From: Candidatus Omnitrophota bacterium
GTDB taxonomy: Bacteria > Omnitrophota > Gorgyraeia > Zapsychrales > Zapsychraceae
Assembly: GCA_050250375.1 (NCBI GenBank)
Contig: JBFWOS010000002.1
Location: forward strand, 453,149 to 517,148
Length of the DNA: 64,000 nucleotides
Reading direction: 5' to 3'
A model generated the notes under the pieces. That model was not told the origin of the DNA and made no database searches. It saw nothing but the letters and a program-made list of their open reading frames with translations. A program made the position numbers and the translations under genes. This document shows, piece after piece, positions 22,401-62,213 of the stretch. Numbering within the stretch: the first letter of the stretch is position 1; every line of letters starts with the position of its first letter.

Positions 22401-25400
22401 TCGGGTGGCGATCGCTTCGATTTCGGCGTAAAGTTCTTTTTTGATCGCATCCATCGGGTCAACAAATTCGACAGTTTCTCCGGTCTTAATGTCCGGGTGA
22501 TTGCTGGCCGTGACTTTTCCGTTTTCATCCAGACGGACCAGAAAGTTGGACCAGGTGACGGCGCGCTGAACAGCCCCGCTGCGGTACCCGAGATCGTCCC
22601 CGCGGTTGTAGATTCGTCCTTCATCCGGATCGAGGTTAGCGCCGATGGTAATTCCTTTTATATCGGACTTGACCACATTGCCGTTGTTGATCACCAATGT
22701 GCCCAGCTTTTGTGTGCCGTCTTCGTTCAGGATTTCGATGGTCTCGTTGACCTGGGTCCGGGTGCTGGTCCGGATGACGGATCCATCGGTCTTTTTCAGG
22801 GTGATCTCGCGCAATTCACGGACGGTCAATAAATGTTTCAGCATCGCCTCCTTGGTGGAGCCCTTGACGCCGCCGAAGTTAACACTCATCCCGCTGACGG
22901 CGAGAATCCCTTTGGCGGCCAGTTTTGCCTCCATCCCTACAAAGGCGTTGTTGGAGCCTTCAATAATGATCAGCGGATCGCGTCCGGCGACATCGCCTTT
23001 ACCGCGCAGCAAGTCAATGGTTTTATCGTTGATCACCCCGCCCATCGCCGCCGGCACGAGCAGATCAATATCAACGATTTCCTTATTAAGGATATCCGTT
23101 CCGGCCAGATGCTCAACACCTATCCGTTCCGGCATCCATTGAAGGACGTTGCGGTCTCCCGGCTGGACATTGTTTAAATTTTGTAATTCTTCAAGGGTGA
23201 ACCCTTCGGGTTTGTAGACCGTCCCGTTGATGTCGGAAATGGCAACGACAATGTATCCCTCCCGGGCCAGTTTCAGGGCGATGGATCCGCCGACATCACC
23301 GGCCCCGATGACCGCCACTTTCAGTTTGGAAGGATCGAGCCCTTTGTAATTGATGATGGCCTGGATGCTGCTGAGGGTCGAATGTCCGGTCACGGCCAGG
23401 TCCACATGCGAGATCGCGCCGACACGGGCAGAACCGCCGGTCACCGCGCTGCCGATAATTTTCTGGATTTCGTCCGCCAGCTGTCCGGTGAACACTTTTT
23501 CCGGAATAAATAATCCGTTCTCGCGGCCGTTCGGTAAGGCCAGGATCAGCCGTTCGCGCATGCGTTCCATCAGGGAATCTTTAAGGAATAGGCTGCCGTT
23601 TTCGACCTCGATTTCTTTAAGGGCGCGTCCGTATTGGGCCAATGTCAGGCTGTAAAGGTCAACGCCGTGGGCCCGGAGCAGTTCGATTTCGTTTTTTAGA
23701 TGGTCCGTGTATCGTTTGATGATCCCGGCAATGATTGTTTCCTGGTTGGCGGAAGACATACCGACATCCGGGCCGCCGTCATAAACTTCCATCAGTCCGA
23801 CGTCGACCATGGCCGTCGCCCAGGCCTTGAGCAGGGTGTCCTTGAGCGGGAGCGCATCCTGGCTGACGCCGAAATAAGTCTTGGCCCCGGCGTAGCCGAT
23901 CCCGGCCAGGACATTTTTGGAATACTGCGAAACAGAGAGATTATTCAAATCGTTGTAAGCGCCTTTCATGATATCAAAGGCCACTTCATCCACATTGCGT
24001 TTGAGCGGATCATTGGCCCGGGCCACCGGCTCGGCGTAACGGATGCCGCCTTTGGTGTGGTCGGCCTTGCTGATGTCGACCAGCTGGGTGATCGCGTAAA
24101 AACGGTCTGGCAGATAAATAAAGATAATTTCTTTTTTGATTTCAATCCCGGTCATTTTGACGCCGTCGAAACGCAGCGCGATCGCCTCATTTTTTTCGCG
24201 CATGTTTATATCCGCGTTGGTCTGTTTGATCAGTTTGATCCCGCGTTCAAATAAAACCGTTAACCATCGGGTTTCGGCGCGTTCCAACATCCCCCGGATT
24301 TCTTTCTCCTTAACGTCCTGGTAAACAAAGCCGATCATGGCCCGCGCGATATCTGGATGGGCGACTAATTCTTTTCTGGCCTCAATGCTGTCGAACACCG
24401 GGCCCTTCCCCTGTTTGGATTCATAATGCGAAAGGATTTCCAGGAACTGCGTCGTTCCCAGCAGGATATCCCGCCGGGCCGCGGCGACATCCGGGATGGC
24501 CTGGTCCAGTCCGGAGCGGTTCATTTTTTGTTCGCGTTGGTCATGGATGTAACGGACAGCTTCGGGGTTTGTTTCCCGTTTTTTAGAGGCGGCCGCTTTA
24601 CCCAATCCCTGTTCTTCGATGGTTCCGGCTGTTTGTTCAGCCTCCGGCATTTGATCATCGGCGATCCCGATGCGTGAATAGAGGCTGGGTAATTGATGGC
24701 GCTGGAAGATCGACGGTGCTCCCTGCCGGACCTGCCGGTCATGGGCCTTTTCCGCGGCCACGGCCTGTCCGATGCTGATATCATAGGTCCCGCGTTTGGC
24801 GGATTCAAAACGGATATTCCCGTACCCGTCTTCGGTTTCCGACTCATTTTGTTCCTCAAGCCTTCCGAGCGCGTTAAAAATATAATGTTTGCCGTCCAGG
24901 GTAATCCCCAGGTCGCTGGCCACCACCAGGCGTTTGATGGCAATCTTCCGGGCCAGGTACGGCGGAAAGAAATAACCCTCGCGGTTCAGATGATCAATGA
25001 CATCGCTGATCACCTGGATAATATATGTGTCTTTAGAGTGTTCCAGCCGCTCTTTTTTGGCGGAGATCAGGTCGGCGATTTTTCTGGCGGCCTGGGCCGG
25101 TGTGAATCCCCGTCGGACGAGTTCCAGGACCATGGTGTTCATCCGGAAAGCGATCCCGGCAATATCGTTGTAAGCGGTCTCCTGGATTTCATCCAGAGGG
25201 TTAATAAACCTGACCGGCAATCCCGCCGGCAGTCCGGGATGATTGCTCTTGACGATGACATTGTCCTGGTTCTGGACGACCAGGTAATTTCCCCAGATAA
25301 CCGTGCGCTGGAGATTGGTCACCCGGTAATTTAAATCAATGCCGTGGCTGTGGACCCGTCCGGTGTTGATGTCAACCGACATGCCGACCACAAGATCCGG

Positions 25401-28400
25401 GATATTCGAACCGACCACGCGGCCGTTTTCGATGATCAGCTGGCCAGAGGCGGATTCACCGGTCAGGTCAACCTGTTCATTGATGACCGGGTTAGACTCA
25501 GCAACGATATCGGATTTCTCAGTCCTTAAAATGTAACGCTGTAATTGTTCAGAGGTAAAGCGGTGTTTGATAAAATCTTCTAGCCAGGACCCGTAGGCGC
25601 CGCCGAAACCGATGCTGGTGGACTTCAAAGCGAGTATGCCTTTTTCCGCGAGTTGTTTTTCAAACCCTTCAAATGAGTTAAAACCGGCTTCCAGATAAAT
25701 CAGCGGTTGACGTCCCGGCTGGTCGTTGTTCCCGCGCATTTTTGCGATATTGTTCGGGTTGACCGTCCGGCCCGGTGCGGCGGAAATAAAAATATCCAGG
25801 TCCACCTGGTCTTTGTCCAGGATCGCGCCGTTCGACAGATGCTGCACCCCGTTTTCTTCCGGCAGCCATTTCGTCACATTACGCTGGTTAATGTTGATGG
25901 ATTCCAGCCGCTGTAATTCAACGGTGCTGAAACCTTCCGGGTTGTAGACGGTGCCGTGGATGTCTTCAATCGCGACGACCTTGTAACCCAGGCGGGTCAG
26001 CATCAAGGCCAGCGAACCGCCGGTGGTCGCGCCTTTGATCCCGATTTTGGTCCCGTGTTTTTCCAGTTTCAAATAATCAATGATGGCCTCGACACTCATG
26101 GCCGTGCTGTACGCGGCCAGTGACCATTCTTTGAGGGAAATATCGTCTTCCTTTGTCAGCAGTCCGGTCGTTGCCGCGCCGATGGTGCGCGCGAGATCAT
26201 CTTTTAATTTTGAATTGAACAGTTTGACCAGGGATGTGCCGCCGTTCTGTCGTCCCAGCGGGGCGAGCGCCACCACCCGCTGGCGCAGGACATCGATCAG
26301 CGGTTCCTGTAAAAATTTTCCGCGGACGGTCCCCTGTTCCAGATCAGCCAGCAGACCGCCGTATTCCGTGGTGGTCAGGGAGCTGAGATTCTCGCCGACC
26401 TTGGATTTAATCATCTCCAGTTCATATTGCAGGTGCTGGAGGTAACGCTGGTTGATGGCTTCCGACAAGGTGTTTTGATCTTTCGCTGTCATGCCCGATT
26501 CGGTCCCGATCACGTAACGCGAAGCCAGCCCGGCATCGACCATCGCCGTCGCGAACCCCTTTAAATGTCTTGATTTGATATTGACCGCGTCCGGATGGAC
26601 CACCAGCACGGTTTTCGCCCCGGCGTACGGGGTCTGGGTGATCGTGTTGCGGTAATATTTGGAACGCGAGATCAGGTCGGTTTCCGTGTAGGCGTCTTTA
26701 AATATCTCAAACGCAGCCCGGTCGGATACGACAAATTTTCCGTGTTTGGTTCTTTCCTGCGGAATTTTGTACCTCAACCCGCCTTCCGCCAGATCACCCT
26801 TGCCGTCTTCATGGTCCACGATCTGGGTGATCGCGTAAAAATAACCGGCCTTATAAGTGAAGACGACCGCTTTCACCTGGGGGTCTTTGGTCAGGGATTC
26901 ACCATCAAAGACCACGGCCACCGGATCATCTTCTTGCCGGAGCACTGAATCAATGCTGGTTGACTTTATATTTTTAAATCCCAGTTCAAATAAAAGGCGC
27001 AGCCACAGCGTTTTGGTCTTTCCGATTTCAGCCAACACCTCGGCTTCAAGATTTTTGTCCGTCAGGTAACGGTTCAGGACAGCGGCGACCGCCGGGTTTT
27101 CCGCCAATTCTTTGCGGGCGGCGATGCCGTCGAACAATTTACCACCCTCCTTGTGCCCGAATATTTCTAGAAACTGGGTCGCGGCCAGTAAGACGTCGCG
27201 GCCGGCCGGAGTCACCAGGTCTTTTAATGCAGTGTCCAGACCGCTGCGGTTTTCCCTTTGATGACGGATATCGCTGATAAAAAGTTTTTCCGATTTGAAT
27301 TTATCGCCCGCCATATCCGGCGGACGTGAATCGTCTTCACCCAGCATCGCGAAATCCGGGGCATAGATCCGGGCGGCATCGGTGATGGAGATTTCCTGGC
27401 CGTCCTGCGTGCGGACCAGGAATTCATAACCGTCCTGGTGCGGGATGATTTGTAACAGGGCCAGGTTTGTCATTTCTTCGGTGTTGGCGCGCCGGATATC
27501 AATGCTCGTAAAAGGATGCATCTTACTTTTGTAAGCCTGGTAAAAATCATCCGGGAGCATATAAAGTCTTTTAGCCATTCCGGAAGCGGCCGGTTTGATC
27601 TCCGTCTGGATCACTTCCGGGCGCAGCGGATCAGCCACGATCTTGACGGACATCGCCTGCAGCATGGCCTGGCGGTTCACGAGCCACATGAATACCTCTT
27701 TAATAAAATCAAGTTCCACTTGCTGGGTCGGCAGTTTGTCTTTCGGGAATCCGAGAAAGGCCTGGGTGACTTCCTCTTTGTTCTTTAAAGTATAGGTCTG
27801 CACATCAAAATCACGGCTTAACGCGGCCAGGATTTCATAGATCAACTTTGGTTCGATCGGTGTATACCGTCTGGAATTATCGGACAACCAGAGGCTGAAC
27901 ATGCGGATGGGTTTTGGCGGATGACCAATATCATAAAATCCGGTAATACCGTTGTAATCAATATCCTTGTGGTTCGGGCTCAGGACCATGAGCATCTGTT
28001 CAATCGCTTCAATGTTCGCATGCAGTTCCCTGGCGGAGTATTCCCGGTCTTTGTCGATGCGGGACAGCATGGCCTGGTCCGCGGGCGTGACATTGATCCG
28101 TTCATTCGTCCGGTCGATGACGATTGAGAAATCTCCGTCACGGATGAACAATTCGGTGGCCTTGTCGTTCGTTTCATTTTTGATCCAGCCGAAGACCCGG
28201 TCATCCCCCCCGGCGGCCAGGATTTTACGCTGCAGGGTCCGGCGCGCGGACCGTCTTTGATCCGCCGTCCCGACCATGGCTTCATCCAGCAACGGTTCTT
28301 CCAGGACAACGATCCGGCGGATGATGGATGCGTCGAAGAAATGCCCGCCGACCGCGTGGATGGCGGTCGGTTTCATCCCGTCATTGAAGCGGTCAAAAAT

Positions 28401-31400
28401 TATTTCATTAGCGTCACCGAAAACATCTTCAATCAATAACCGTGATCCCCACAGCAACGCGACTTCAGAGGCTTCATCCGCGCGGTAAAAATCCGTGAGT
28501 TCGGCGAAAGAATTAAAATATCTTTTTGTGTACGGGCGTGACGGGTTCGCGTTGAACAGGTTAAACGGCAGGGCCAGTTCTTTGTTGTAAATCATATTTC
28601 TTAATTGGGGGTCCATCGGGCCGGCGGCTGTTTCAATCAGGTCGATGAACCGGCCCCAGTCAATCGAGTTGCCGATCAGATAAATCAGAGTCGCGAAAAA
28701 TCCGTTCGGGTAGTCCAGTTCCAGGCTGTCAACCGGCGCGTTCAGCCAGATCGTGGTGGTGCCGGCTCTGGGTGAAATGGTCAGGTGCTGGCGCAAACGG
28801 TTTGAGCGCTGCGCGAAAAACTGGATCAGGTTGTTTGAATCGTACGGCCGGCCGAAACGGTTTAAGGCCTCGACCATCATGAGGACCATCTGTTCGTCCA
28901 GTTCGGGAGAAATTCCTTTCTTTTTAACAAACTCGTCCCAATTATCCAAAAGCCGTTTCAGGTCCAGCGTATCACCCAGGGCAAAGGCCACAAACGACGG
29001 GTTCACGTGTAATAACCGGCCCAAATACCGGGTGTAATCACCCAGCATTGCTCCGTCGGCGCTGACGAATTCGACCGCGCCCAGCCCGATCGGGATATCT
29101 TCCACTTCATATTGGGCTTTGGAAAACGTGATGAAATAGACGTCTTTGGTCAGGCCGGCGGGTGTCAATAATGTCCCGCGGTTGCCTTCTCCTTTAGAAA
29201 TTATGATATCTGCCTTGTCCCAGGCCCGGACAAAATCCGGGGTGGCCCGGCGCAGGTCGGTCCCTCTGGTCTTGGACCCGCTTGAAATGACCCTGATCTG
29301 TCCGCTCGTTGCGTGTTTCCCAAAATATTGTTTGACTTCATCCAGGTACAATAAGGTCTTAATGTCATCGGCGGTGACATCGTTGTCCGCTTCCACGGCC
29401 TTTCCGACCAGGGTCACGGAGTGCCCGCCTTTGAGGATGAACAGGATCAAAGGCAGGTCATAAATATATTCAATGATGTTGTCAAAGAGATAAACCACAT
29501 TCTTCGGTTCCTTCTCCATCAATTCGGCGACCAGCCGGGACGTATCCCGCTGATGATACAAGATATCTTCATTCAGGTAGGACTGGATATATTCTTCAAG
29601 CGAACGCGGGTCGCCTTCCAGGATCCGTCGACGGAATTCGGTTGAGCTGGTGATGTTCCCCTTAAGAGCGAGTTCGACCGCGCGTAATCCCCTTTCATAC
29701 CCCCCGCGGCTTTGCTCGACATAGGCCTGCAGTTGCGGCAGGAATTCCAGGGCGATATCGAGGGCCTTGGTTTTATAATTCGACATCGGTTCACGCACGT
29801 TCGCCAATTCTTTAATATAGTCGTAGCCGACCTCTTCGATTTCACGCAGGGTCAGCTGGTTCAGACTCTCCCGGGACAGGAAGTTGTCCAGCATTTGGCG
29901 CGCGTTGCCGGCCGGTCTTTTTCCATGCCTGAGCGCGATTTCAAGATAACCCCTTAGATGTTCCTGGACCCTCTTGCGCACCATCGGATCGCCGTATAAA
30001 CGGCGGCCGGGAAGGTAATCACCGGGTTCCTGGACAAAGATCGGGCTGACCGGGTCCGTCCGCAGGAACGCTCGCAAAAATCCGTCATCGTTGTCCGTGG
30101 TGGTATCGGCTTCCATCGCCTGGTCGGCATGAATGATCACCCGGGCCTCGTCTAATAAACGCGTTCGGTCCAGGTAGGTCCGGCCGATCTTTTTTCCATC
30201 CACCTTGACCGAGACCCTCTTGGGGTCGCGTTTGCCGATGTTGAGCAGTCCCTGGACGGTTGTGCCGGGTTCGACAAAATAAACCCGCGCCTCTTTTCGT
30301 TCGTTGGTGATATTGATTTTAAATTTTGTTTTATGGCGGATGTCTTCTTTAATTAACGCAACGACGCGTGTTAACTGCCGGGCGGCCGCGGCATCCGGTG
30401 TCTCTGCGGAAAGGAGCCGGATGGATGTCTGAATTCGTTTCGCGGCGCGGATGAGTCCCGGTTCCACGTGCGCCAGGTCAAAATATTCCTGGTTGAGTTC
30501 CGTTAACAGGTCACGCGCTGAGATGTATTCACCTTCTTTAATTAATAATCCGATGCCTTCGATCCGCTGGGTGATGTCGTCGTCGCGGAATTCCAGGAAC
30601 AGGCTGGTCGCGCTGACCTTCAGGTGAGCGGCGATCCGGTCGATGTCTTTTAAGCGTTTGTCCAGCTGGGCAATGACGCCCTGCAGGTGGGCCTCGGCCC
30701 GTTTAAAATCGTCAGCCTCAATGAGCGTGATCACCGGAGCCAGGTCAATGGTGGCAAAGATTTTAGGGACGACAAATCCCCTGCCTGTCCACTGCTGAAG
30801 TTCACGCAGTTTTTCGATCATCACTTCCCTGTTATGCTGGGACAGGGGTGTTTTGCGTCCGCGTTCTTTGCGCTGGTCGGCTTCTTTTAATTTCTTCGCG
30901 TAATAGGTCAGGTCCGTTTTGTTTTTCAATACGACCATGTACTGCGCCAGTTCCGAAGCGATCTTTTTGACCTGGCCGTCAAACGCCTTGCGCAGTCCCC
31001 GGTACGGCACGTCGCTCCAGACCATCTGTTTGGGAAAATGGATATTCGCGGTCAGGCTTTCCACGCGTGATTTGATGTCGTCTTTGATCTCGCCCGCTTC
31101 CAGTTTTTGTCCCGGGGTCAGCCGGCTGATCACATCTTTTAAATCCTTCAGGTCCTGCGTGATATTTTTGTACCGTTCGAGTGTGACCAGATAATGCAGG
31201 CTGTACAGGCCGGTCAGTTCATCAATTTTTTCCAGCGCCTGGGCAATCTCGCCGCGGTTGGCTTGTAAACGGATCTGGTCAAGCCGGGTGTGCACATTGA
31301 TCGGCCGTTTCTGGCGGACCAGCACGGTCGGTTCATCCTGGCCGTCTTTTTCATCCACATCAATATCAAAAGTTCCGAGCCGGTAGGTCCTGACCCGGTT

Positions 31401-33950
31401 CCCGAGCCAGTCATTGGTCTCAAATGATTTTCGCAATTGTTGTCCGCGCAGCCGCTGGATGCGGTATTCCAGTTCGATCTCAAGGGCATTGGCGCTGTTG
31501 ATCGCACCTTCCAGCGCGTTTAACGCCGGCACCGGATGGCGGATGCCGTCGCGGGAGTTTCCGGTCAGGAGCATTCCGGCAACGAGGATTTGGACCTTGA
31601 TCAACAAGCGTTTGTTGCGGATCGAATCGAGATTCAGACGGCTTAGTTCCGCCTTATTTTTACGGATGTCCGCCAGTTCAATCATGCGCGACAATTTGCG
31701 GCGGTTGTCTTTTAATTCTTTGAGGGCCTGGCTGTAAAATTCGTAAGACTCACCGGAATGGATCTTCACCGGCATGTCGGAATAAAGATTTCTTAACTGG
31801 TTGACCAGCATCTGCTCGCGCAGTTCAACCGCCTGATATTGTTCCGGGGTAGACGCTTCACGGCGTTGGGCGATGATCTGTTCCAGTTCCCCGTACAGGA
31901 TGCCTAACTGCTGGCGGATCTCGATCGAGGCGCGGCGTTCGGTCTCGCGTTCATTCTCTTCGCGTTCCGGGACTTTCCCCCACGCGGGGACCCTGATCTC
32001 CAGCCGGTCTTCCGTTGACATCATGGCCTGGTCCGAGTGGTCGATATTCAGGCTGATCGCGGCCAGCAGGTTTGACAGGCGCATGTGGACCAGTTCCGCC
32101 AGTCCCACCCGCTTGAGCAAATCATTCCCGACGGCATCCGGCAGTTCCAGATAAAACCCGGTGAATTGCCGTTTGATGACGGTCAACTGCGGCGCCTGTT
32201 CAGCCGGCTGCGCGGTTGAATCCGCGCGGAAAAGCGGGACCGTTTTTAATTCCCCGGCAAGATGCTGCTGGATTTCCCGGATTGAATCGACATCCGCGTC
32301 CGCGGCCGGTTCGTCCGGATCGTGTTCCCAGAGCGTGATGACATCCGCGCTGACGGTTTGTCCCCGAGCGTTTAAAAATTCTCCGGATTTGAAGATGTCC
32401 GGTTTATAGGTTTCATCCGCGATGGTGATGCGGTCGATCATTTTTAAAATCCCGTTTAGAAGTGATTTCTTTTTGGCGGAGGATAATAAAGCAGAATCAC
32501 CGCCGGTGGGAAATAATTTTTGTCCGCCGTAAACGACCTCAATGTGGACTTCATTGGCCATGGAATACATGTTGAACTGGCCGAACTGGTCTTTGGTTTT
32601 ATTCCGCAGTTTCCCGGCGACCAGCGTCAGGATGATGTTAAACGCGGTGTCGTGCGGGAATTGGGCCAGCAGTTCACTCCGGAAAAAGACTTTGATATTC
32701 TTGGCCGGGTCCTCTGAGGCGATCTTTCTGGCCGCCTCAATGTGAAATTCCAGATCATCTTCGTTGACGAAAATGGCCTGGTCCGCGCTCTGCAGTCCGG
32801 CATAAGTTGAGACCGTTTTAAATTCTCTGGTCGCGGCGGCTTTCTGTAGGGCGTCGGTCAAGCCGGTCTCGAGTTTTTTCTCCGACAGCTGGGCCATGTC
32901 CACCCCGCCCGAAAAGTACCGGCGAGGAATCGTCTCGTGGCTGACCGCGTCAATATCTTCTTTAATGTAATCAAACACGCCGCGTTTGAAGGCCGCGATG
33001 TACTGGTTATAAATTTTTTCCTTGATATCTTTTTCCGCGAGGTCAACCCCGCTGATCTTGTTCTGGTCGACATAAATCCGGCCGAGCACGCTCTCTTTCA
33101 GGTTCTTCTTGTACCACGCGGCGAGGATCAGGGAATGGAACATCTGGCGCAGCGGGGCGAAATTTTTTCCTTCATTGATTTCCCGTTCGATTTCCGGGAT
33201 CAGGACCTCCCGGACAATATCACTGTTAACGCCGGTGCGGATCGTTTCATCCGTTGCGGCCGGCGCGTCCATGGCGGAATGGTGTTCCAAAGCGAGGTAA
33301 TCTTCTTCCAGCATGACTTTAAGGTGGCTGTCGGAAACAAAGACATGGTTGTCGTTGACAAAGACTTTGGCCCGTTCCGGCACAATCCAAATTTTATTAA
33401 AGGTGTTGAGCGGGATATCGGTGGTCCCGAATTGGCTCTGTGCTTTGCGGTAGACACGGTCCCAGAATTTTTTTCCCAGTTCGTCTTCCGGATAAAGCAT
33501 TGAGGCGCTGAGCTGTTTTAACAGGTAATCCTGCGCGAGCATGTCCCGGCCCATCGCGGTCTGGCTGAGCGGCTGGGCGATGATGCGGTCTTTTTCATAA
33601 GGCGAAAGGTTGACCCACATCTGGTCTTCCGGCACGGTCAGCGCGGCAAAGAAATAATTGATCAGTTTTTGGGATTCAGTCCTGAAGGCCTCTCCGGCCA
33701 GGCGGTCATCCCCGGTATCAATGAGGAAATCCACGTTTAAAGGATCGGCTGTGTCAATGCGCATCCCCGTGATAATCGCGGGGGTAAAGACGGCGCTGGT
33801 CTGGACCATCAGCCCGGGCTGGGGCAAAAGCACCATCTGGGCATAGGCCAGCTGCGGGGCGATCATGTTCAGGCAGAAACACACGATCACGGACCAGATC
33901 ACGCACCGGCGGCTTAAACGTTCAAGAGTTTGTTTGAATGGTTTACTCAT
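19485..33950 (-). CDS. Giant secreted multidomain protein (4821 aa): signal peptide, shared N-terminal module, DUF89-like domain, two ~900-aa tandem units each carrying a Glu/Leu/Phe/Val-dehydrogenase-like domain, and a shared C-terminal module
   Basis: A single uninterrupted ORF with an ATG start, a signal peptide ending ...LAYAQ and no internal stops over 14.4 kb. The domain calls rest on motifs: PYAGAKTV versus GGAKGG, NAD-binding [36 protein letters not shown], and the DUF89-like SKGEGNRG. Confidence 0.85.
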   Translation of the reverse strand: [4821 protein letters not shown]

Positions 33951-43040: not shown

Positions 43041-46000
43041 CTATCGCGCCAGGGTAAGTTTGGGGGCGGCGGGGGTTTCTTCGTTTGGTCCGGCATGGCC
43101 CAGGATAAACGGCAGGTACAGGACGGGGCGGATGTCGATGATGACCGGGAAGTATCCGCCGATGTGCATGAGTTCCAGCGGCTGTTCCTGGATGGGCAGC
43201 GGGATGCCGAAGTCATCACGTTTGATCTGTAAATCCAGCCAGCGCGGGTTTAAGTCGATCCCCCCCACGGACTTGATCGTCTGTTCTTCGGCGGACATCA
43301 TGTGGTCCTTTTTGGGATCGGACGTCCGGACGTGGGCCAGGACTTCCGGGTTGAGGACATTTTCCGGGATCTTGCCGTCAATCAGGCGCCTGAGGTTCAG
43401 CATGGCGCGCGCGATCTTGAATTGCCTGACCTTCCAGACGGCGGCGGCCGTGTGGCCGGACAGTTTGACATTGGTGAGCTGTTCCCCCTCATCGTTGACA
43501 AACCGGCGCTGGCTTTCCCCTTCGTCGTTTAAGACGTCCAGCCGGATCTGAACGCCGGGGTGTTCGATGGCGTAATGGATCAGCGCGTTTTCATCCACCT
43601 GGAATTTGCTCGCGTTGATCAGGACGCGCACCGGGCCTTCTGCGTCCAGACCGAATTGCTGCAGGGCCTCTTCGTTCACCCATTCGACATTGCGCTGTTT
43701 GGAGGAATCGTCCAGGGTGGTGACAATATTACTGCGCCGGAAGAAATCCATTTTGTCGGCGTAGGCCGGCGCTTTCATGCCGGGCCCGTACACCTTGCGG
43801 CGGTTGTCGGCGATCTGGCTGAACGCGTCATGTTTGGCCTCCAGGTCGCGGGTGTCCATGCTTTCGGTATCAATCAGGAGATTAACGCCGAAGGCCAGCG
43901 CCCGTTTCGCCAGGGCTGTCCCGATGCGCCGGATGCCGTGCACGCCGAACGTCTGACGGGCGAGGCCCGTCTGAAGGACGTTGCTATCCTTAATAAAAAT
44001 CTGGTCCGCGTCAATCACGACCCCTTTGACCTTTTCCTTGTCCCGCAGGCTTTTGTAGGCCTTGTCCGACGGTGTTTTCAGGATATAATCGGACGACCGC
44101 ACCAGTTCCGATTCCTCCACGAGTTTTAAATTGATCGAGATCCCTTTGATCTCGGAGTTTTTTATGATCGTCTGGATCAGGTCCTGGATCCGCCGGCGTG
44201 TGGATTCGCTCAGTTGTTCATATTCTTTGCGCAACACATAAATGGTGGCGGCCTGGTGGATGACGGCGGTTTCCAGCAGGTTGACCCCGGCGGTCTGCAG
44301 TCCCAGGATCCCGATCGTGGTGTGGATGCCGGCTTCGTCGTTCTGCCCGATCTGGTCGTGGTAAACGGTTGAATCGGGCGACACGCCGGTCTTGGCGTAT
44401 TTTCCGGAGCGGCCGAATTCAAACATCTCGTCCAGTTTCAGGGCTTTTTTGAGCAGCATGTACCACATGATGTGGGCCGCGTTGAGGCGTTCTTCGTTTG
44501 TCTTGGGCTTGACGCCCGAGAGTTTGACCGAGCCGGGTGTTTGTTCGAAGGAGACAAGCTGTCCGTAAACGCCGTCTAACGCCAGGGCGATATTCTGTTC
44601 GGCCACGGCGATGGTCGTCGGGCCGGGCGCGGTCGTGACCACGGTCTGGTGGCGGGTCGCCGCGTCCAGGTCGATATTGTGTTCGGCCGTGGCAAATAAG
44701 ACCAGGCCTTTCAGGTCGGCCTTTTCAAAGAAGGCGTCGTCAAAGCGGGTGTTGCAGTAACCCACGCAGAAGTCGTAGTCTTTCTGCGAGACGATCTGTC
44801 CGACGTTCGGGTCAATCCCGGCGATCAGACGCCCGTCTTTCTCAACGACCTCGGACTCGCTGCCGATGATGTCAAAATTGATATCGGAGAAATTGTCGCG
44901 CAGGGCCTCGATCATGTCCGGGTTGAGCGGTTCGACGACAAGAACGTTTGTCTTCCCCCTCTGCGAGGTCATCCGTTTAAATTTGAGTCCGGCCAGGGTG
45001 ACGTCGGTTTCTTTGTGGTACAGCACGTGGCCGTTTAAGATATTATGCGGGACCTGGAAGTTCATCAGCCGTTCCAGATTGTCCAGGGCGCGCTGAACTT
45101 TAAGCCGGCGGACCTGCGGAACGGCGGCGGCGGTGTGGCCGGCCACTTTGATATTGGGCAGCGGATTGTTCGACGCGTCCCTGAAGCGCTGGTGGGCGTC
45201 GCCTTTTTCTTCCTGGTTCACCACGTCCAGGCGGACTTCGACGTCCGGACGGTCCCGTAAATAATGCAGCAAGGCCTCTTCATCGATCAGGTTTTTGACC
45301 TGGCTGACAATGGCGCGCACGTCGCCCTTGGCGGACACGCCGAATTGTTCCAGTTTTTCGGCGTCAATCCACGATTCCGTTTCCGTGGTTAAAGGTGTTA
45401 AGGTCGTAATGATATTGCTCTGCTGCATGAAATGATCAAGGTCAACAAAAACGGCCCTTTGCTGTTCCGGGCCAGCGTCCCGCAGCATGAAAAATGACAG
45501 GCTGTTGAGGAAGTCGATTTTTTCCGTATACATCGGACGGGTGGATTCCCTTTGGTTGATCAGGGCGGTCGCGCGCAGGGCGATCACCCGCTGGGCCACG
45601 GCCTTTCCGATGCGTCCCAGCCCCTGTATCCCGACTTTCAAACCGGCCAACGAAAGTGAAAGCGTGGCCGGGTCTTTGATAAAAATGGTCTGCGGGTCGA
45701 CGTCGATCGGGTGCGCGTCCAGGAAATCACTTAAAGTCCTGTTCTGCCGGGCGGCCGGGGTGGCGATGGTGTAATCGGACACTTCCACCAGCACTTCTTT
45801 GGGCAGCGGTTTGATGGAGATTTTCATATCGTATTTACGTTTATTTTCTTCCATCGTTTTGATGAGGGATTGAAACCGCTCTTTGGCGGTTTCGTCCAGA
45901 TTTTTGTATTCATCTTCATCAACATAAATGGTGGATAATTCATGGGTGATGGCCATCTCGATGAGCCGTTCACCGACGGAATCAAGGCCCAGGATCCCCA

Positions 46001-49000
46001 GGCTGGTGTGGATGTCGGCCTCTTTGTTCTGCCCGAGCTGGTCGTGGTAGACGGTGGCCTGCGCGCCCACACCCGTGCGCACGTAACGTCCCTTGGTGGC
46101 GAAGGTGAACATTTCATTGAGTTTGAGCGACTGCTGCAGGAGCCGGTACCAGATGATCTGCGCTTGGGCATCGGGGTCCGCGCCGGTTTCCCGGACCAGA
46201 TCCGTCATGCGGCCGGTGGCCAATGTTTCTTCGGACAAGACCTTGCCCGCGTAAATGGAATCCAGCATCAGGCCGATATTTTGTTCCGCGACGGCCACGG
46301 TGGTCGGGCCCGGGGCGTTGGTCACAACGATGTCGTTGCGGCTGGCCGCGTCCAGGTCGATGTTATGAACGCCGGTGGAAAACAGGATCAGTCCCTTAAT
46401 TTCGGATGTGTCAAAGAATTCTTGGTCAAAGGTCTCGTTCACGTACCCGAGGACATAGTCGTAATGTTTGGCCTTGACCAGATCTTTGAGTTTGCCGCGC
46501 ACGCCGGGGATCCAGTTGGCCGTGTCGTCTTCGACAATCTCGGAGTCCGGCTGGATGATGTCGAAGTCCACATTCCCCATCTTTTTATGCAGCATGGAAA
46601 TGATGTCCGGGCCGATGGGTTCAACAACAAGAATGCGCGCCCGCGGATTGGGGACTTTTAAGACCAGGAATTTGAGGCCGTGCATGGTTGTCTCTGTGAC
46701 TTCGAGTTTCGGCCCGCTGACCATCCGATCAATTGTGTCATCGGTGTGCGGGATCCCCATCGAGGTCAAGACCTTGGCGATCCGGTGGCTGGACAGGCGG
46801 TACTGGTTCGGATAAGGAAAAATGTCCGGCAGCTGATTGGTGTCCATGCGCCATTTTACGGAATTCCAGAAATCCGGCTGAAACAAATCGCCGTGGATTC
46901 TTGTAAATTCTTTCTGGAATATTAACGGGATTTTCAGTTCCGCGAACAGTAAACCCGGATACACCCGGAAACGGTTTTTGCTGTCTTCCCTGGCCGGCAG
47001 TGTGACGACCGGCGGCTGGACCTTGCGGTAACTGGGGGCTGTGCGGAATTCTGTTTCTTCAATGCGGCCCAGGCCGGCATTGTTCATATAAACGACCCGG
47101 CCCCAGGACGTGATCCCGAAATGCCTCAGCGACATGTCTAAAGGGAAAATCCCCATCGACGCCAAATGTTTGATGTTCCAGCCGATTTTAATCAGGATAT
47201 CCAGCTGGGCGGCCGCATCGCTCTGGGCCCAAATGTCGGCAACCGGCGTGATATGCCGCTGCGCGAACATATTGATAAATGTGATGTGCGTTTCATCCAC
47301 AAAAATATCGGCGCCGGCCTCGCGTTTGAGCAGATCGACCAGTTCCGGGTCTACCATCGAAATGGGAAAACGCACATTCGAATACGCCCAGGAATCCAGC
47401 AGCTGCCCGTGCCGGTTTGATTTATGGATATCGCGGTAGGTATCCACGATATGCCCCCGGTTGGGTGCGTTATCCCTGATCACTTTAATGACGATGGGTG
47501 ATCCGGGTACCGCCATGGTGATCGACTGGTCCCCGTCCCCCAGATATTGAAGCCTGTTTCCGCTTTGTTCCATTTGTTCGTACAGTTCACCGAGATAGAT
47601 TTGCTGGGAACGCTGCGTGAGCCCGACTAGGTCGTAAATCTGCGCGAGGCTGACTTCCGGGAAAATGTCGGCGATGAAACGGATGACCTCCGGAAAATCC
47701 GGCGCGTTGATCATGAACGACGAACGGGTCGAGGACAGCAAAAGGTTTTTTGAGGTTAAATAATCGGTGACGACCGCGTCGATGACGACGCCGTTGTTCG
47801 GGTGTTTCAGCGCGATGATCAGCGGCACCGGTTTGTCATTGGTCAGAAAACGGCCGACCACGTACGCGGCCTTGTTGCGGTAAAACAGGGGTTTAAGGAC
47901 TTCAATCCCTTTGATCTCGACGTCCGCAGGCAGATGGGACAGCTGTTCCTCCAGCATCGCCGCGGTGATTTCGATATCCGTATCAGGGGTTTCGTACAAA
48001 TCCCGCAGGTCAAAGTCGTTGAGGATGGCCTGCACCGTCTCGCGCAGCGCCTGCGGTCCCTGGTACGGGTGCTGATGAATGACCTTGTCCGCAGGTGTCC
48101 GGATCCCGGAAACGGGTGTTGTCTTGTAATCTTTACGTAAAGGAAAATATGTCAGCCGGCTCATGACGGAATCCAGGAAACTTAACAGCAGGTCCTGTTT
48201 GTAATAGTCCTCCTGCGTTTCATAGTTGTGGCGAAGCATTGTGCGGATTTCGTCCCAGATGTGGACGTCGTCGATATATTCGCCCAGGATCATGCCGATG
48301 ATCTGGGTGGTCTGGTTGCTGATGCTTTCCTGCATTTCAAGCCGCATCTGTGAATAAATCAGGTTGCCGCGCCAGTCTTTATCACGGAAGAAAATCCGGG
48401 CCTTGTCCGTGGTCCGTTTAAAATGCAGGTAATATTCTTCAAAGCTGTGCTGGAATTCCGTGACGGCGGCGTTGAGGGTGGTCTCGTACGGTCCGGCCCG
48501 GTAATCCAGGATTGTTTTTTTGCTGTAATCGGCGCGATGGCGCAGGATAAATTTAAACATCTGTTGGCGCTGGTCATCGGTCAGATCATTCTGCGCGCTT
48601 AAGGAAGATTGGTTCCAGTCGCTGGGCGTGATGGTGTTGTACGCGCCGAACACAAAATGGACATGTTCGGTTTTATCCGGATTGTCGATGAACCATTCCA
48701 TTTCCCGGGCGAGTTCGTCGCGTTGCGGATGCGAAAACAAGTCGCGCGGCACCAGGACAAAGACCGGTTTGTCTTCGGTCGCGCGGGACGTGACGGCTTC
48801 CAGCAGTTTTTCGGCCGGGACATTGTCTTCCGTAAAAAATTCCTGGAAGCTCTCCTGCCAGGTGGACAGGCCGGAGACGGCGGCCAGCGCGGGATAACTG
48901 TGCTGCCAGGTGTCGAACCCGAGCAGGTACCCCCCTTCATATCCGGACAGCGGGATCCGGTCGATGAAATCATAAACGGTCATGGCTTTTTGGCGGATCA

Positions 49001-50330
49001 TCTCAAATCCGTCAAGATTGGTCCCGTAGAATTCGTTTCTCAAATTCCGCAACTCTTCCGTTAGGTTCACCGGATGCAGGATTTTGATTTGTTTCCTCGC
49101 GATCATCTGGCGCAGGGTGTCGTCTGATAAAGGTGCTGCCTCGTCTTCGCCGGACAACATGGCGGTGTCCGCGTTGGCCCCGATGTCGTATAAATCGGCG
49201 GTGACCTTAAAGAGCCGGGTATTCTGCGCGGAGTAATCATTAAGCATGGCCTGGTCCCCGGGGGTCAATGCGGCCGGGTCGCCGGTCAGGACGCGTAAAT
49301 TCCGCTGCTGGACGGGAAGCAGCCCGCCGGAAAAATATTGCCGGGGTAACACCTTGTGACTGACCGGGTCGACGTCTTCTCGGATAAAATTATACACCCC
49401 CACTGTAAAGGCCTTCATATACTGCTCATAGATTTTAGCGTTGAGCGTTTCATCCGCCGAGTCAATGCCCCGGATTTTATTGCGGTTCACATACGTCTGG
49501 GCCAGCAGGCTTTTTTTCAGCGTCATTTTATACCAGGTGGCAAGGATCATGGCGTGATACATCTGGCGCAGCGGGGCAAATGTCTTGCCGTTGTTCACTT
49601 CCTTTTCAATTTCCGGGATGATGTGTTCCCGGATCAGGCCGGTCAAACGCTGGTCGTCTTTGACGGCTGATTCATCCGTCGGCCGGGCGGCATCCAGGTA
49701 ATCCTTTTCCAGCATGACGGTCAGGTGGCTTTGGATCACGTAAGCGCCCTGGGTGTGTTCGTACACCACCGCGTTGTCCGGAACGATCCAGATTTTATGC
49801 AGGAAATCATTAATATCCATTTCCGGCGCATTGGTCTCTTTCAGCGCTTTGGACCAGAAGGTCCGGCCGGGCTCCTGGTCGGGATGCAGGAGCGACGCCG
49901 TTAATTGTTTCAATAAATAGTCCTGGCTTAACAAATCCCGCCCCATCCCGGTCCGGCCCAGCCCTTCGGCCACCATCCGGTTTTGTTCGTGGGGTGATAA
50001 ATTGACCCACATTTCATCTTCGGGGACGGTTAAGGACGCTAAAAAATATTTGATCAGCCGGGCGGATTCATCCTGGAATTCGGCGCGGCCGTAGGGGTCG
50101 CCGCCGGCCTTGATCATAAAATCAAAACGCAAAGGGTGTTCGGGGTTAAGGATGATGCCGGTCAGCAGGGCGGGTGTGTAATTTTCCGTCGGTGTGATCA
50201 GGGTTCCGGGCACGGGCAGGTGGCTGGTCTGGGCAAGAAGTACAGACGGCGCCGCGAGTTGTATTAAGAAGACAAACGCGGTGGCGCAAACCAGGGCTTT
50301 AAATCCGAATTGTCGCGAAGAACGTGCCAT
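43041..50330 (-). CDS. Giant secreted multidomain protein (2429 aa): signal peptide, shared N-terminal module, full-length AceK-like isocitrate dehydrogenase kinase/phosphatase homolog, two tandem D-isomer-specific 2-hydroxyacid-dehydrogenase-like units, and the shared C-terminal module
   Basis: An ATG start with signal peptide ...SVLLAQ. The AceK-like segments include [16 protein letters not shown]..., [21 protein letters not shown] and [10 protein letters not shown]. The 2-Hacid_dh motifs are [33 protein letters not shown] and GHTAAAV, each present twice. Confidence 0.85.
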   Translation of the reverse strand: [2429 protein letters not shown]

Positions 50331-57213: not shown

Positions 57214-60200
57214 TTAAGGGGTATAGGCGCTTAAGGTTAAAATGCCCGTGTCGTCTTCCTTAATATACGGGGATTGGCTGCGGATGGAGATTTCCGGATT
57301 GTCCTCATCCTGCGCCGGATCGGCGATTCCCAGCAGGAGCGGGAGATTATTCACGGGGATGATCTGGAAGATCACCGGGGCAAAACCGTCCAGGGGCATG
57401 GATTCCAGTTCCCGCAAAATGAGCGGATCCAGCGGAACGGTCATGTTGATCCCCTTCCCTCTTTTTTCGATAATCAAATCGGCCGGGTTAAGATCGATCC
57501 CCCCGACCCTTTCGCTGGTGGCGGTTGGAGTCACATCTTCCGCTACGATTTGCGGCGGGATATCCGTTGCGGCGACGACCGCCGGCGTTTCGATGTCTGT
57601 GACCGGCGATACAGTAGTTCCGGCCGGCAATTCAGTCCCTCTCAAATCGTTCTGGTATTTCGTGTACAGGGTCGGCAAATCCGTTTCAAAATTAAAGCGG
57701 TAACTGCTGCGCATGCGGACATCGTCATCGGGATCTTCCTGAACGTTCCAGACGCTGGCGCCGATGGCTTTATAAAAATTCTGCTGGCGGGTGACCGCCG
57801 GTCTATTCCAGAAATTATAGGACCACCAGGCGGATGTCACATTCCCCTGGGTTTTTTCGGCGATGTTGGTAAATGTCCGGTGGAGCAGCCAGCTGGCGGC
57901 CTGTGTTCCCTGGAATTCCGGGGCAACCACAAAATCACTCATGTAAACGGCATTGCCGTTGCCGTTATATTGGACGATGGCATAACCGACCGGTTCATTG
58001 TTCGTATCCAGCAGGACAAAACTGTAATCATCCATATTGCTGCGGTTTTCGATGGGGTTTAAACGGAAGCGCATGATCTGCCCGTTTAAAACCCGGTATT
58101 TCTGGTTGCTCAACAGCATTTCTTTGGTCAGCGGCGCGATGCGGATTTGCTGATTATTAATCGTCTGGACATCGGCCAGGACCGCGTTGTCGCTTTGCCC
58201 TAAAGCCGTCTGGTCCAGTCCGGCGATTGCCTGGTTTAAGTCGTTGCTCAGGTCCTCCATGCTTTCATAATTTTCATTCGGATTGGCGAACAGGGCCTTT
58301 TCAACGATCGCCCAGATACTGGCCGGCATGTCATTCTGAGGTGTCCCGTCAAAAGTCGTTGTTCCTCTGAATTCCGCGGGATTAACCGGCGCGAGGGTCA
58401 TGGTCTCTTTATTCAGCATTGCATCGTTAATCGTGGCCCTGGCCCGGGAAAATGTATTGAGCAGGATTTCTCCGATGACGATCATATCCCGGTACTTGAT
58501 GCCGGCCTGCAGAGACCTGACGTCGGTCTTGTCGAGGTCCATTTTTAAGGTGTCCCAATCGATCAGGCGCGGACGGCCGGTTGTTTCATCAATGATAATA
58601 TTTTCCGTATGGAGATCCCCGTGAAACGCCCCGTACGTCGTGGAGATGTAAGCGATTTCCCGGGCGACCTCCGCCAGAATCCTTAATCGTTCCCCCCGGT
58701 CAGTGACGGCATCAAAATGGGTGCCGCGGATGAATTGCATTTCGATCATATTCGGTTGCAGCGAAATATTGTCTTCCAGATTGGCGTTGGGCATGGCGAC
58801 GAATTGTTTGACCCGTTCGTCATTACGGACGGCCAGAAAGAATTCAAGCAGGCTGATTTTATCCATTGAGATAATATTGTCTAACAAAAACTGGCTGAAA
58901 AATTTGATGGCCAGCGGTTCGCTTTCCGTCCCGTCCGCCCTGATCTCCACGCCACGGAATACCGGCTTGAGCAGGTCCGCGGCAATAATTTCCTCCAGCC
59001 GGTAATCTTTTCCTTTAACCCGGATGACCACCGGGCGCCGGTCAACGATGACCTGTTTTAATTCGTCCAGCAGCTGCTGGGAGCGGTCCCCGAAGAAATC
59101 ATCCACATTGATCTCGACCTGTTCACCGGTTGATGCCAGGACAGCATTGTCGGATGTGGCCAGACGCACGCCGGCCTCAAAAAACGGCAGGGCGTTCGCC
59201 GCGTCGTACTGCTGAACAACAATCTGCTGACTGAGCGCGGTATCGTTGGTGATCTCAACCGTTGTCCGGGTGCCGGTCACTCCGTCCTCTTCGGTTGCCT
59301 GACGCGCGGCCGGGCTGACGGCCCGCCCGTTCAGGTCCGATAAAACCGTCGGAGCTGAATCAATGTACACCCGCAAAAGGCTCTGGTATTGTCTGAGGAA
59401 TTCATTCCGTTGCCGGTTGTCCCGGCTGACGTCTGCCAGCCGCTGGCGGACCTGTTCGAGAAAACGCGCGATCGGCGCCTCAATCGGACGGGTTTCACCC
59501 GGGGTGTCTCCGGTTAAATCACTGATCAGTGTCTGCAGCGCGCCTGTCAGGAAACTGTAATTCCGGCGCTGGAATTCCCTGAATTCTTCTTCGACAAAAC
59601 GTTCGGACACGCCTAATGTGTCGGGATCAACGCGGGATGAATCCTGGTTGACGATGCCGGAACGCAGACCGCCGGTCACCGGGTCAACCCCGCTTTCCAC
59701 CATGAACGTGACGCCTTTGGGCTGAACAGGCCGGGTCAATTCACGGACGACCCGCAGATTGTTATTATCGAGCGACCCGAACTGCAGTTCCATCCCACCG
59801 GAAAAATATTTACGCGGGATCAGTTCCTGGGAGACGGGATCAAATTCTTCCTTGATGTAATTGTAGACGCCGACCTTGAACGCCTCGAGGTATTGATCGT
59901 AAATTTTCTGTTTGATTTCCTTGTCAGCCACATCAACCCCGCCGGTCTTGCTCTGGTCCAGGTAAATCCGTCCCAGCAGGCTCTCTTTCAGGTTGCGTTT
60001 GAACCAGGTCGCCAGGATCATGGAATGGTAGACCTGGCGCAGGGTGGCGAAATGTTTGCCTTCGTTGACTTCTTTTTCGATGGCCGGGATCAGGATCTCC
60101 CGGATGATCTCGGCCGTCACGGTCCTTTGTTCCCGCGTCTGTTCATCGGTAGCGGCTTCGGATTGTTTGAGATTTTTATTCTGGTCGAATTCGGTGTGGG

Positions 60201-60891
60201 CGATGTAATCCTGTTCCAGCATGACCTTCAGTTTGCTTTCGACCACAAAGGCCGTGTCGCCGTTTTCATAAACCACCGCGTTGTCCGGGACGATCCAGAC
60301 TTTGATGAACGTATCCAGCTGGAGTTCGGCGGAACCGTATTTCCGGACGATTTTCTGCCGGACATCGTTCCAGAAATGTTCCCCCAGCTTATCTTCCGGG
60401 TACATCATGGAGGCCGTCAATTGTTTGAGCACATAGTCCTGGGCCAGCAGGTCGCGCCCCATTTCCGTGACGCCGAATTTGTCCGGGATGATCCGCTGTT
60501 TTTCAAAAGGCGACAAATTGACCCACAGGTCTTTTTCCGGAATGGTTAATGAGGCCAGAAAATATTTGATGAGCCGGTTGGACTCTTCATACAAAAAGGA
60601 ATCCACGGTCTTTTCATCCCCTGTTTCCAGGATAAAATCAAAACGCAGCGGATTGTTGGGATAAATGCGCAGTCCCTTGATCAGGGTCGGATTGTAGAGA
60701 TTGCTGGTCTTGACCATCTGTCCCGGGGTGGTCAGGTGGAGCGCAGACAACCATGGTTGCGGTCCCGGCCGTTCTTGCGCGTAAGTATATTGAGCCGGCA
60801 CAGTCAGGCCAAAACCGATCATGAAAATGATCAGCGCTGTTACCAGGCGTGAGCCTCTGGATGATTGCCGTTTTTGTAGCCACTGAAACAT
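57214..60891 (-). CDS. Giant secreted multidomain protein (1225 aa): signal peptide, shared N-terminal module, RIO/Kdo/APH-type protein-kinase-like domain, GNAT acetyltransferase-like domain, and the shared C-terminal module
   Basis: An ATG start with signal peptide ...QYTYAQ. The kinase catalytic-loop and metal-binding motifs are [14 protein letters not shown] and LIDWD. The GNAT motif is [17 protein letters not shown]. The C-terminal module is GGIDLNP...[17 protein letters not shown]. Confidence 0.85.
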   Translation of the reverse strand: [1225 protein letters not shown]

Positions 60892-62212: not shown

Positions 62213-62213
62213 G

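Follow-up and report, generated by a model that had tools for sequence, protein, structure and literature searches.

Compact protein kinase cores that lack an activation segment are found in RIO1/RIO2, in Bud32/PRPK and in the secreted effectors OspG and NleH, and the latter two set a precedent for exported minimal kinases that act in another cell. In MARTX toxins, the motifs between the modules are processing sites. Very long 'multi-enzyme metabolic' proteins, or Archaeovorins, of the phylum Omnitrophota are described in passages of two preprints (10.1101/2023.11.21.568195; 10.64898/2026.06.07.730766). Here, we analyse a gene of a Candidatus Omnitrophota bacterium that encodes a protein of 1225 amino acids (aa) with a kinase-like and a GNAT acetyltransferase module. 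It lies in a 64,000-nucleotide stretch of contig JBFWOS010000002.1 (positions 453,149 to 517,148), which is referred to as the window throughout.

A first-pass annotation of the window had read the product as an exported protein with a RIO/Kdo/APH-type kinase-like domain, recognised by its catalytic loop and DFG-equivalent, followed by a GNAT-like domain. This succession is borne out, with the GNAT model PF00583 above its Pfam cut-off and with kinases matched by a profile of the module and by Foldseek. We consider it fairly probable that these are two real modules, a divergent kinase and a divergent GNAT, which serve as interchangeable cargo of a protein family with common ends, here called the bracket family, and that the protein is exported and acts at a destination shared by this family.

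Protein Architecture and the Bracket Family

The gene (57214..60891, 1225 codons plus stop in the list of open reading frames, ORFs) encodes a signal peptide, an N-domain, a linker, the kinase module, the GNAT module and a C-domain, in this order. All its parts lie on the minus strand, and positions are those of the window. The product is 100% identical to the NCBI entry 'MAG: GNAT family N-acetyltransferase [Candidatus Omnitrophota bacterium]', and two full-length orthologs, P0002 and P0003, share 74% identity with it.

A homology search with the whole protein gave more than 4000 matches. The non-orthologs examined by BLAST align mainly over aa ~1-370 (50-60% identity) and ~1115-1200 (35-60%), and a few of them have the kinase or the GNAT in common with the query as well. 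The hallmarks of the family, all present in the query, are the signal peptide, an N-domain with LNLPxPG…WVNLSPYE…RKYFSGG and a C-domain with GGIDLNP…NLPLLLG. The N-terminal bracket domain (aa ~46-370, 59782..60756; LNLPxPGxMV … WVNLSPYE … RKYFSGG) is 50-60% identical to more than 100 proteins with unrelated middle parts. The C-terminal bracket domain (aa ~1128-1200, 57292..57510; VGGIDLNP…GKGI…PLDP…LE…PLDGFAPVIFQIIPVNNLPLLLGIA) is 35-60% identical to the C-termini of 116 out of 117 non-ortholog family matches. Its consensus of ~70 aa reads GGIDLNPxxLxLQxxGxGIxFxxPxDxxxLExxxIxGFxPVIxQIxPVTNLPLLLG and is followed by an acidic tail. This tail (57214-57300) ends in …LSAYTP, and many members end in …(L/I)-S-(A/S)-(I/V/L)-x, as seen in …QLSAI, …LSSIK, …ISALN and …VSYLN.

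Between these ends, the Pfam matches of the family comprise metabolic enzymes, namely phosphoglucomutase, UTP-glucose-1-phosphate uridylyltransferase, phosphoglycerate kinase, glucose-6-phosphate isomerase, aldolase and GAPDH, furthermore transketolase, PPDK, glutamate dehydrogenase and AceK. Regulatory and other cargo includes PP2C, HATPase_c, receiver, GGDEF, HTH, DnaJ and HEAT domains, peptidases and ordinary protein kinases. The linker of the query (aa 371-600, 59092..59781) is ortholog-specific and matches P0002 and P0003 only; short beta strands predominate in its modelled stretch, aa 371-430.

The N-domain of ~330 aa was modelled by AF2 with a pLDDT of 69.7 and a pTM of 0.75. Its top Foldseek matches in the PDB, weak and all of them ClyA-family alpha-pore-forming toxins (NheA, MakA/B/E, SmhA, Cry6Aa), were discounted (TM ~0.12, probability <=0.15). 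When a family profile was compared with PDB sequences, low-complexity and coiled-coil matches appeared in cargo columns alone. Within the C-terminal 120 aa, neither a T9SS CTD, PEP-CTERM or GlyGly-CTERM model nor an autotransporter barrel or RTX/T1SS model was matched in Pfam/NCBIfam at E<=1, and AF2 shows no confident beta-sandwich or barrel at the C-terminus.

At least 581 family loci occur in species-representative genomes. The best 80 of them are almost all from Omnitrophota metagenome-assembled genomes (MAGs), and several genomes hold multiple copies. Literature searches returned no description of the bracket domains; they found only the giant-protein papers mentioned above, whose searched passages are silent on them. 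The bracket family is very large, Omnitrophota-specific and apparently undescribed. The remaining labels among the best 80 loci are some 'uncultured Planctomycetales', one 'bacterium' and one Candidatus Elulimicrobium. The last is an N-domain locus (L045; DYOU01000064.1, 6.3 kb) in a MAG of the Patescibacteria group and may reflect a binning artefact or a rare transfer. N-domain relatives of 51-54% identity were also seen in three IMG/VR loci classed as viral (L083, L084, L085), ~10 kb or less from the contig end; these are probably prophage host flanks or misclassified contigs.

The Kinase-like Module

The protein-kinase-like module (aa 601-894, 58210..59091) is supported by alignment, by a profile search against the PDB and by AF2/Foldseek. 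Alignment with its relatives and with ordinary Hanks kinases reveals the beta3 Lys K663 (PLAIKFF) and the hinge MIEMQFIRG. The catalytic loop reads H757-G-D759-LHTE-N764 and the DFG-equivalent I-D778-W-D780, and thereafter come the alphaF segment KYRD802MIVIGEILL and a subdomain-XI-like PNENYESMEDL. The string that had first drawn attention to the gene, AFHGDLHTENIIIDETTGRPRLIDWDT (aa 755-781, 58549..58629), holds the catalytic loop and the metal-binding Asp, as seen from the Pfam matches to APH (732-784) and RIO1 (708-779) and from the alignment with capreomycin phosphotransferase. The Brenner motif HxDxxxxN…D is present, and the pattern HxDxxxxN…DxD occurs a single time in the six-frame translation of the window. 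Compared with ordinary Hanks kinases, ~22 residues are deleted, a gap that takes out the activation segment, the P+1 loop and APE, and N873 (PNENY) stands in place of the Arg that pairs with APE.

Across 13 modules of 18-29% identity, five positions are invariant (K663, G723, N764, D778 and D780) and three others nearly invariant (H757, D759 and D802). The catalytic Lys and Asp, whose conservation the first-pass annotation had named as a check, are hence an invariant position (K663, which anchors ATP) and a nearly invariant one (D759). When aa 601-1092 were searched exhaustively with HMMER in 1.84 billion representative proteins, 20 matches reached the cut-off of E<=1e-3. Some twelve of them are related modules within other large proteins, five of which (P0121-P0124 and P0126) carry the N-domain of the query according to BLAST over this region, and ordinary kinases of Hanks type make up the weak tail.

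The profile built from the 13 modules matches 1077 kinase sequences of the PDB at E<=0.01. The top matches are Streptococcus pneumoniae StkP (5e-15) and Staphylococcus aureus PknB (3e-14, over profile positions 21-287), followed by Mycobacterium tuberculosis PknB (3e-13) and then by PknA and CK2. In the C-lobe, a second stretch of StkP aligns at profile positions 234-286, and positions 252-294 of the NCBIfam PknD model align to aa 850-892. An AF2 model of aa 590-1225 has pLDDT values of mostly ~85-95 in the kinase part, and Foldseek returned GAK, Mps1, RSK2, M. tuberculosis PknI and RIPK2, each at a probability of 1.0.

These results bear on an alternative that follows from the RIO/Kdo/APH label, namely that a small-molecule kinase of this type is fused to a GNAT and that both act jointly on one target, like AAC(6')-APH(2'') or a two-activity effector. 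The query itself scores 21.0 bits with Pfam APH (cut-off 23.2; profile positions 147-199 of 239) and 16.8 bits with RIO1 (cut-off 22; positions 75-148 of 187), alongside 13.7 bits with Pkinase (PF00069; cut-off 31.7) and a sub-threshold Bud32 match of 22.9 bits in the Pfam/NCBIfam scans. Capreomycin and viomycin phosphotransferases are the best matches of a single-sequence PDB search (E 0.0064 and 0.32), IDWD is a motif of APH/choline-kinase style, and RIO, Bud32 and APH typically lack the activation segment. Relatives of the module even score above cut-off in Pfam with RIO1 (up to 38.6 bits) and APH (25.6), as well as with Pkinase (37.0 in P0125). However, the RIO1 and APH matches, also those of the relatives, are limited to the hinge-to-DFG core, whereas the alignment between the module profile and Hanks kinases runs from one end to the other and neither RIO nor APH is among the top 60 PDB matches of the profile. 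An alignment with StkP, PknD and ordinary serine/threonine kinases extends through helices alphaF to alphaI, the tail of the exhaustive search points the same way, and the kinase-GNAT pairing is restricted to one ortholog cluster. We therefore regard a jointly acting pair of APH type as unlikely. A Pfam TCAD9 match (24 bits, cut-off 40) was dismissed as generic kinase-core similarity.

Of the original label, the missing activation segment and the HGD…IDWD core stand, while profile and fold searches place the module nearest to Hanks kinases. The module is closest to Hanks or eukaryotic-type kinases (StkP, PknB, PknI, GAK) and is not a member of RIO or Kdo, and probably not of APH. Its place is between Pkinase, RIO1 and APH, and the helices alphaF to alphaI of its C-lobe are Hanks-like. 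In our reading of the alignments, it would represent a distinct clade of the protein-kinase-like superfamily, with N- and C-lobes of Hanks type and, in the manner of RIO, Bud32 and APH, without an activation loop.

The GNAT Module

The GNAT acetyltransferase module (aa 909-1084, 57640..58167) is supported by Pfam, by PDB matches and by AF2/Foldseek. It reaches 27.1 bits with Acetyltransf_1 (PF00583; cut-off 20.7) and 27.1 bits with Acetyltransf_7 (PF13508; cut-off 27). The two strings formerly pointed out as GNAT motifs, YSFVLLDTNNEPVGYAIVQ (aa 956-974, 57970-58026) and MSDFVVAPEFQGTQAASWLL (aa 984-1003, 57883-57942), fall inside it; their distance from the kinase motif is ~175 aa, not ~130 aa as had been stated. 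The closest PDB sequences are SSAT-like thialysine acetyltransferases (2fe7 and 12jc, E 7e-5). The AF2 model has a pLDDT of ~80-88 in this part, and Foldseek matches Naa10, Naa50, YqjY, PA2271 and DDE_3044 with a TM of ~0.7 and a probability of 1.0.

The beta4-alpha3 loop reads P991-EF-Q994-GTQAA-SW1001LL and the motif-B region R1035-QQNF-Y1040-KAIGA. Eight related GNAT modules in total were found among the 1.84 billion proteins, including those of P0005, P0121 (two), P0123 (two) and the small TPR protein P0129. P991, G995, W1001, L1003, W1023, R1035, Y1040, G1044 and A1045 are invariant across the related modules. R1035 and Y1040 belong to the pattern R-x-x-x-F-Y-x-x-I-G-A, which aligns to FYRSIGA of 2fe7 and 12jc, so that the conserved Tyr of motif B, the general acid in alpha4 of GNATs, is present.

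The GNAT fold is thus supported, and the module probably binds CoA, as far as its residues tell. Textbook motif A is found by half: from the acetyl-CoA loop Q/RxxGxG/A, which was to be looked for, QGTQAA keeps one part, and the Gly at position 4 is not conserved in the module family, where this position is Q, E, S, P or A and position 6 is A or S.

Module Shuffling and a Junction Motif

The first-pass annotation had treated kinase and acetyltransferase as a pair. Among the 1.84 billion representative proteins, both modules occur together only in the ortholog cluster of the query, and there is therefore no evidence of a co-evolved bifunctional unit. Elsewhere, the kinase module is combined with M23 or trypsin-like peptidases, adenosine deaminase or methyltransferase (sub-threshold), and the GNAT module either with a further GNAT or with HATPase and HTH domains. 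Kinase and GNAT represent cargo that is shuffled independently, not a dedicated bifunctional enzyme.

A short motif recurs at the module borders. DNAVLA is found at aa 581-586 (59134..59151), 20 aa before the kinase module, and again at aa 901-906 (58174..58191), directly before the GNAT module. In P0005, P0121 and P0123, all homologous GNAT modules have D(S/T/N)A(M/V)LA before them. Family-wide, DxA[MVL][LMIVF] is five-fold enriched (229 observed versus 45±7 in shuffles), and in 24 out of 122 proteins it lies 7-28 aa upstream of GGID. DxA(M/V)L may be a site of processing or a signature of linkers.

Selection and the Case for Activity

Selection was estimated per domain by the Nei-Gojobori method against the ortholog gene in locus L081. 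The dN/dS values are 0.11 for the N-domain, 0.15 for the linker, 0.12 for the kinase, 0.20 for the C-domain, 0.43 for the linker before it and 0.65 for the acidic tail, which is the least constrained part between the orthologs. For the GNAT, a pN of 0.26 stands against a saturated pS of 0.78. Purifying selection is seen in every domain. It thus maintains both enzyme modules, and on the kinase it is as strong as on the N-domain, the most conserved part of the protein.

Several observations weigh against two exported and active enzymes. The Gly-rich loop of the kinase module is degenerate in the query (AADLLKPVFRGV, without GxGxxG), and the column of the alphaC Glu varies across the module family (E/N/D/K/I/R/G); E683 lies within alphaC, its column one turn off the Glu of StkP in the profile alignment. 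The pyrophosphate loop of the GNAT, Q994-G-T-Q-A-A999, is without the Gly at position 4, and solved relatives have R-G-V-G-A-G. The cleavage of the predicted signal peptide was judged by eye alone, and a site reached by Sec export holds neither ATP nor acetyl-CoA, so that activity would require a further delivery step. As to the brackets, the N-domain gave no significant Foldseek match in the PDB or BFVD (best E 0.018 and 0.034), both bracket domains are without a match in Pfam, in NCBIfam and, by profile, in PDB sequences, and the C-domain is modelled with a pLDDT of 29-69 and no confident fold.

Because the Gly-rich loop, the alphaC Glu and the GNAT loop deviate, either module could be a weak enzyme or a pseudoenzyme. 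In the extreme case, both would be catalytically dead domains of a surface or periplasmic scaffold, kept for ligand or protein binding. Such an explanation would account for these deviations and for a predicted location devoid of cofactors, and it is in agreement with the GNAT, which among the folded domains is the one least conserved between orthologs (60% identity). We nevertheless hold it to be improbable. The invariant K663, N764, D778 and D780 and the nearly invariant H757 and D759 persist in 13 strongly diverged modules, R1035, Y1040, G1044 and A1045 do so in the GNAT, the kinase matches the N-domain in its low dN/dS, and other cargo of the family matches active enzyme families over their full length. 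The altered GNAT loop lowers the confidence in acetyl-CoA binding without excluding it, since this loop binds via backbone amides. Judging from the retained residues, both modules are probably enzymatically active.

Export and Destination

By inspection, aa 1-38 (60778..60891) resemble a cleavable Sec-type signal peptide, which agrees with the exported protein proposed in the beginning. A basic n-region (K7, R8, R12, R15) is followed by the hydrophobic core LVTALIIFMIGFGL and by TYA↓QE, likely a signal-peptidase I site with a predicted cleavage after A38. In the query and in 45 listed N-termini of the family, we recognise by eye a basic n-region, an h-region of 10-20 aa and a small-x-small site, without lipobox or twin-Arg. 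The 45 listed N-termini have hydrophobic cores of 15-20 aa, a helix-breaking Pro and 'xYA↓Q', after which the mature end LNLPxPGxMV begins, and a Met start with an LNLP-type motif within 120 aa is seen in 111 out of 137 collected proteins. A Tat signal was rejected, as there is one conserved Arg and no RR motif, and a lipoprotein signal was rejected in the absence of Cys.

One might also assume that the protein is not exported at all. With an uncleaved anchor or an N-domain tether, it would be part of a cytoplasmic membrane-associated 'metabolon', in which kinase and GNAT are regulators comparable to AceK and Pat/AcuA. This would fit the cargo, all of which across the family is of cytoplasm type and depends on cofactors (glycolysis, AceK, HATPase, REC, GGDEF, DnaJ, HTH), and the conservation of the h-region and its flanks (YRxLSxF…) exceeds that required for a generic signal. 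Moreover, the topology calls for the giant proteins of Omnitrophota are, in the passages concerned, admittedly uncertain (10.1101/2023.11.21.568195; 10.64898/2026.06.07.730766). On the other hand, the positive-inside rule applies, with four K/R preceding the hydrophobic core and none immediately behind it, the helix-breaking Pro and 'YA↓Q' in the listed N-termini fit a cleaved Sec signal whose mature part lies outside, and there is no second transmembrane segment that would return the cargo to the inside. A cytoplasmic location thus appears quite unlikely.

With export as the preferred reading, the protein would be threaded through Sec and its signal peptide cut after A38. The shared N- and C-domains would then bring every family member to one destination or assembly; we infer a common destination since the conservation of these domains (50-60% and 35-60%) is independent of the cargo. 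There, the kinase would move phosphate from ATP, and the GNAT acetyl from acetyl-CoA, onto a protein or small-molecule target. The site of action may be the cytoplasm of another cell or a cofactor-supplied compartment that is shared with the metabolic cargo. In the latter case, kinase and acetyltransferase could regulate the metabolic enzymes of the family, much as AceK, which is among the cargo of the neighbouring paralog, controls isocitrate dehydrogenase in other bacteria.

The cytoplasm of another cell seems the most plausible site, because ATP and acetyl-CoA are cytoplasmic and Omnitrophota are, in the parts of the literature concerned with their lifestyle, described as host-dependent or predatory (PMC10066038; 10.1101/2023.11.21.568195). 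The 'effector logic' that had been ascribed to the protein is likewise plausible, since both enzymes need cytoplasmic cofactors. A bolder version, which we put forward tentatively and with some doubt, is that the bracket represents an undescribed phylum-wide route of export and delivery, by which dozens of cytoplasm-type enzymes per genome, among them glycolytic enzymes, AceK, PP2C, HATPases and the present kinase and GNAT, would leave the cell and arrive on or in host or prey cells. DxA(M/V)L would then be processing sites that free single modules, in the manner of MARTX toxins, and the kinase and the GNAT would be host-modifying effectors.

Window Paralogs and Genomic Setting

The window holds three members of the bracket family. 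Paralog 1 (19485..33950, minus strand; 4821 aa) has the same N-domain (tblastn, 51% identity, E 8e-117) and C-domain (E 3e-9), and its Pfam cargo comprises an ARMT1-like phosphatase and a Glu/Leu/Phe/Val dehydrogenase. Paralog 2 (43041..50330, minus strand; 2429 aa) likewise shares the N-domain (47% identity, E 2e-99) and the C-domain (E 2e-8); it carries AceK regulatory and kinase domains and D-2-hydroxyacid dehydrogenase domains, each Pfam model being matched in two stretches. Large parts of both paralogs are without a Pfam match.

Housekeeping genes are found in the neighbourhood (ValRS, LeuA, aspartokinase, iPGM, ThrC, homoserine dehydrogenase, GpsA). Synteny is kept at the ortholog locus L081, and a mobile-element origin of the gene was rejected on these grounds. 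No conserved partner gene was seen near family members: the neighbours in the window (two MORN_2 proteins, TetR and small ORFs) are unmatched in 80 related loci, and when the ORFs in the 3 kb upstream of family loci were clustered, other family members in tandem alone emerged.

MORN_2-repeat proteins adjoin two of the three family genes (61049-62257 and 41522-42469, both minus strand). The one upstream of the target has a counterpart by position in L081, a 388-aa gene at 6700-7866, and a MORN_2 neighbour was not found in the 80 other family loci. A low-GC island at ~39200-42900 (GC 0.28-0.40 versus ~0.52 elsewhere) contains Sel1-repeat, TPR and MORN_2-repeat genes and may be horizontally acquired. 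Between the target gene and a cluster of tRNA-Gly/Tyr/Thr (55409-55841), there are a TetR-family gene (56543-57148) and a 108-aa ORF without Pfam match (56116-56442). Neither of the two is called in the syntenic L081, which suggests a local insertion beside the tRNAs. A gene with a DUF1016 N-terminal and a staphylococcal-nuclease domain (50502-51614, plus strand) is situated between two family genes and has the same position in L081.

Comparison with Known Systems

The Hanks kinases PknB, PknA, StkP and PknI provide the best profile matches (E 5e-15 to 1e-9) and the fold matches of the kinase module. Shared with them are the beta3 Lys, the hinge xxMEyxxG, H-x-D-x-x-x-x-N, the DFG Asp, the alphaF Asp and a subdomain-XI-like P..xYxS..eL..DL. 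The module differs from them by the exchanges of HRD to HGD, of DFG to DWD and of the APE-Arg to Asn, by the deletion of ~22 residues and by its degenerate Gly-rich loop; it also does without their PASTA and transmembrane parts and resides in a multi-module protein that bears a Sec signal. Unlike the minimal kinases RIO and Bud32, it possesses a full Hanks-like C-lobe from alphaF to alphaI, which these lack, and the RIO-specific N-terminal helix was not detected in it. The GNAT module resembles the SSAT/thialysine acetyltransferases and Naa10/Naa50 in its fold (TM ~0.7) and in the conserved Arg and Tyr of motif B, but differs in the pyrophosphate loop, which is QGTQAA and not R/QxxGxG/A.

AAC(6')-Ie/APH(2'')-Ia is similar in that a GNAT and a kinase-fold phosphotransferase share one polypeptide. 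Here, however, the domain order is reversed, the kinase is of the eukaryotic protein kinase-like type and the pairing is not conserved; moreover, the former is a cytoplasmic resistance enzyme, and the present one a modular protein predicted to be exported. With MARTX toxins, the bracket family has in common that conserved ends flank a variable, shuffled array of enzymes and that recurrent motifs end in Leu and a small residue (here DxAML|A). It differs from them by the absence of any sequence or fold homology, by a Sec signal instead of type I secretion and by a cargo that consists largely of housekeeping metabolic enzymes; RTX-type repeats and a cysteine-protease domain were not found in the query with Pfam/NCBIfam.

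Kinase and GNAT are divergent members of well-known superfamilies and for this reason add little alone; the novelty is the bracket architecture around them. Thousands of Omnitrophota proteins would carry ATP-, NAD- and acetyl-CoA-dependent enzymes behind a Sec signal and between domains that are unknown to Pfam, NCBIfam and the PDB. This bears on the question why an uncultured, ultra-small and apparently host-dependent phylum has cytoplasm-type enzymes predicted outside, a question hitherto posed for 'giant' proteins alone. It becomes tractable with the bracket domains and the junction motif, which offer expressible proteins of 0.7-1.2 thousand aa, defined motifs amenable to mutation and peptides to search for in metaproteomes.

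The giant proteins themselves, as far as the respective passages of the preprints go, come from the same phylum and hold the same cargo (HATPase_c, GNAT PF00583, PGM, HEAT, glycolytic enzymes, kinases), and they pose the same puzzle of cytoplasm-type enzymes predicted outside the membrane. The N-domain, the GGIDLNP C-domain and the DxAML motif go unmentioned in the searched passages. The giant proteins measure at least 10-30 thousand aa and have N-termini with a C39 or S8 peptidase or with transmembrane segments, whereas the bracket proteins seen here comprise 0.7-4.8 thousand aa.

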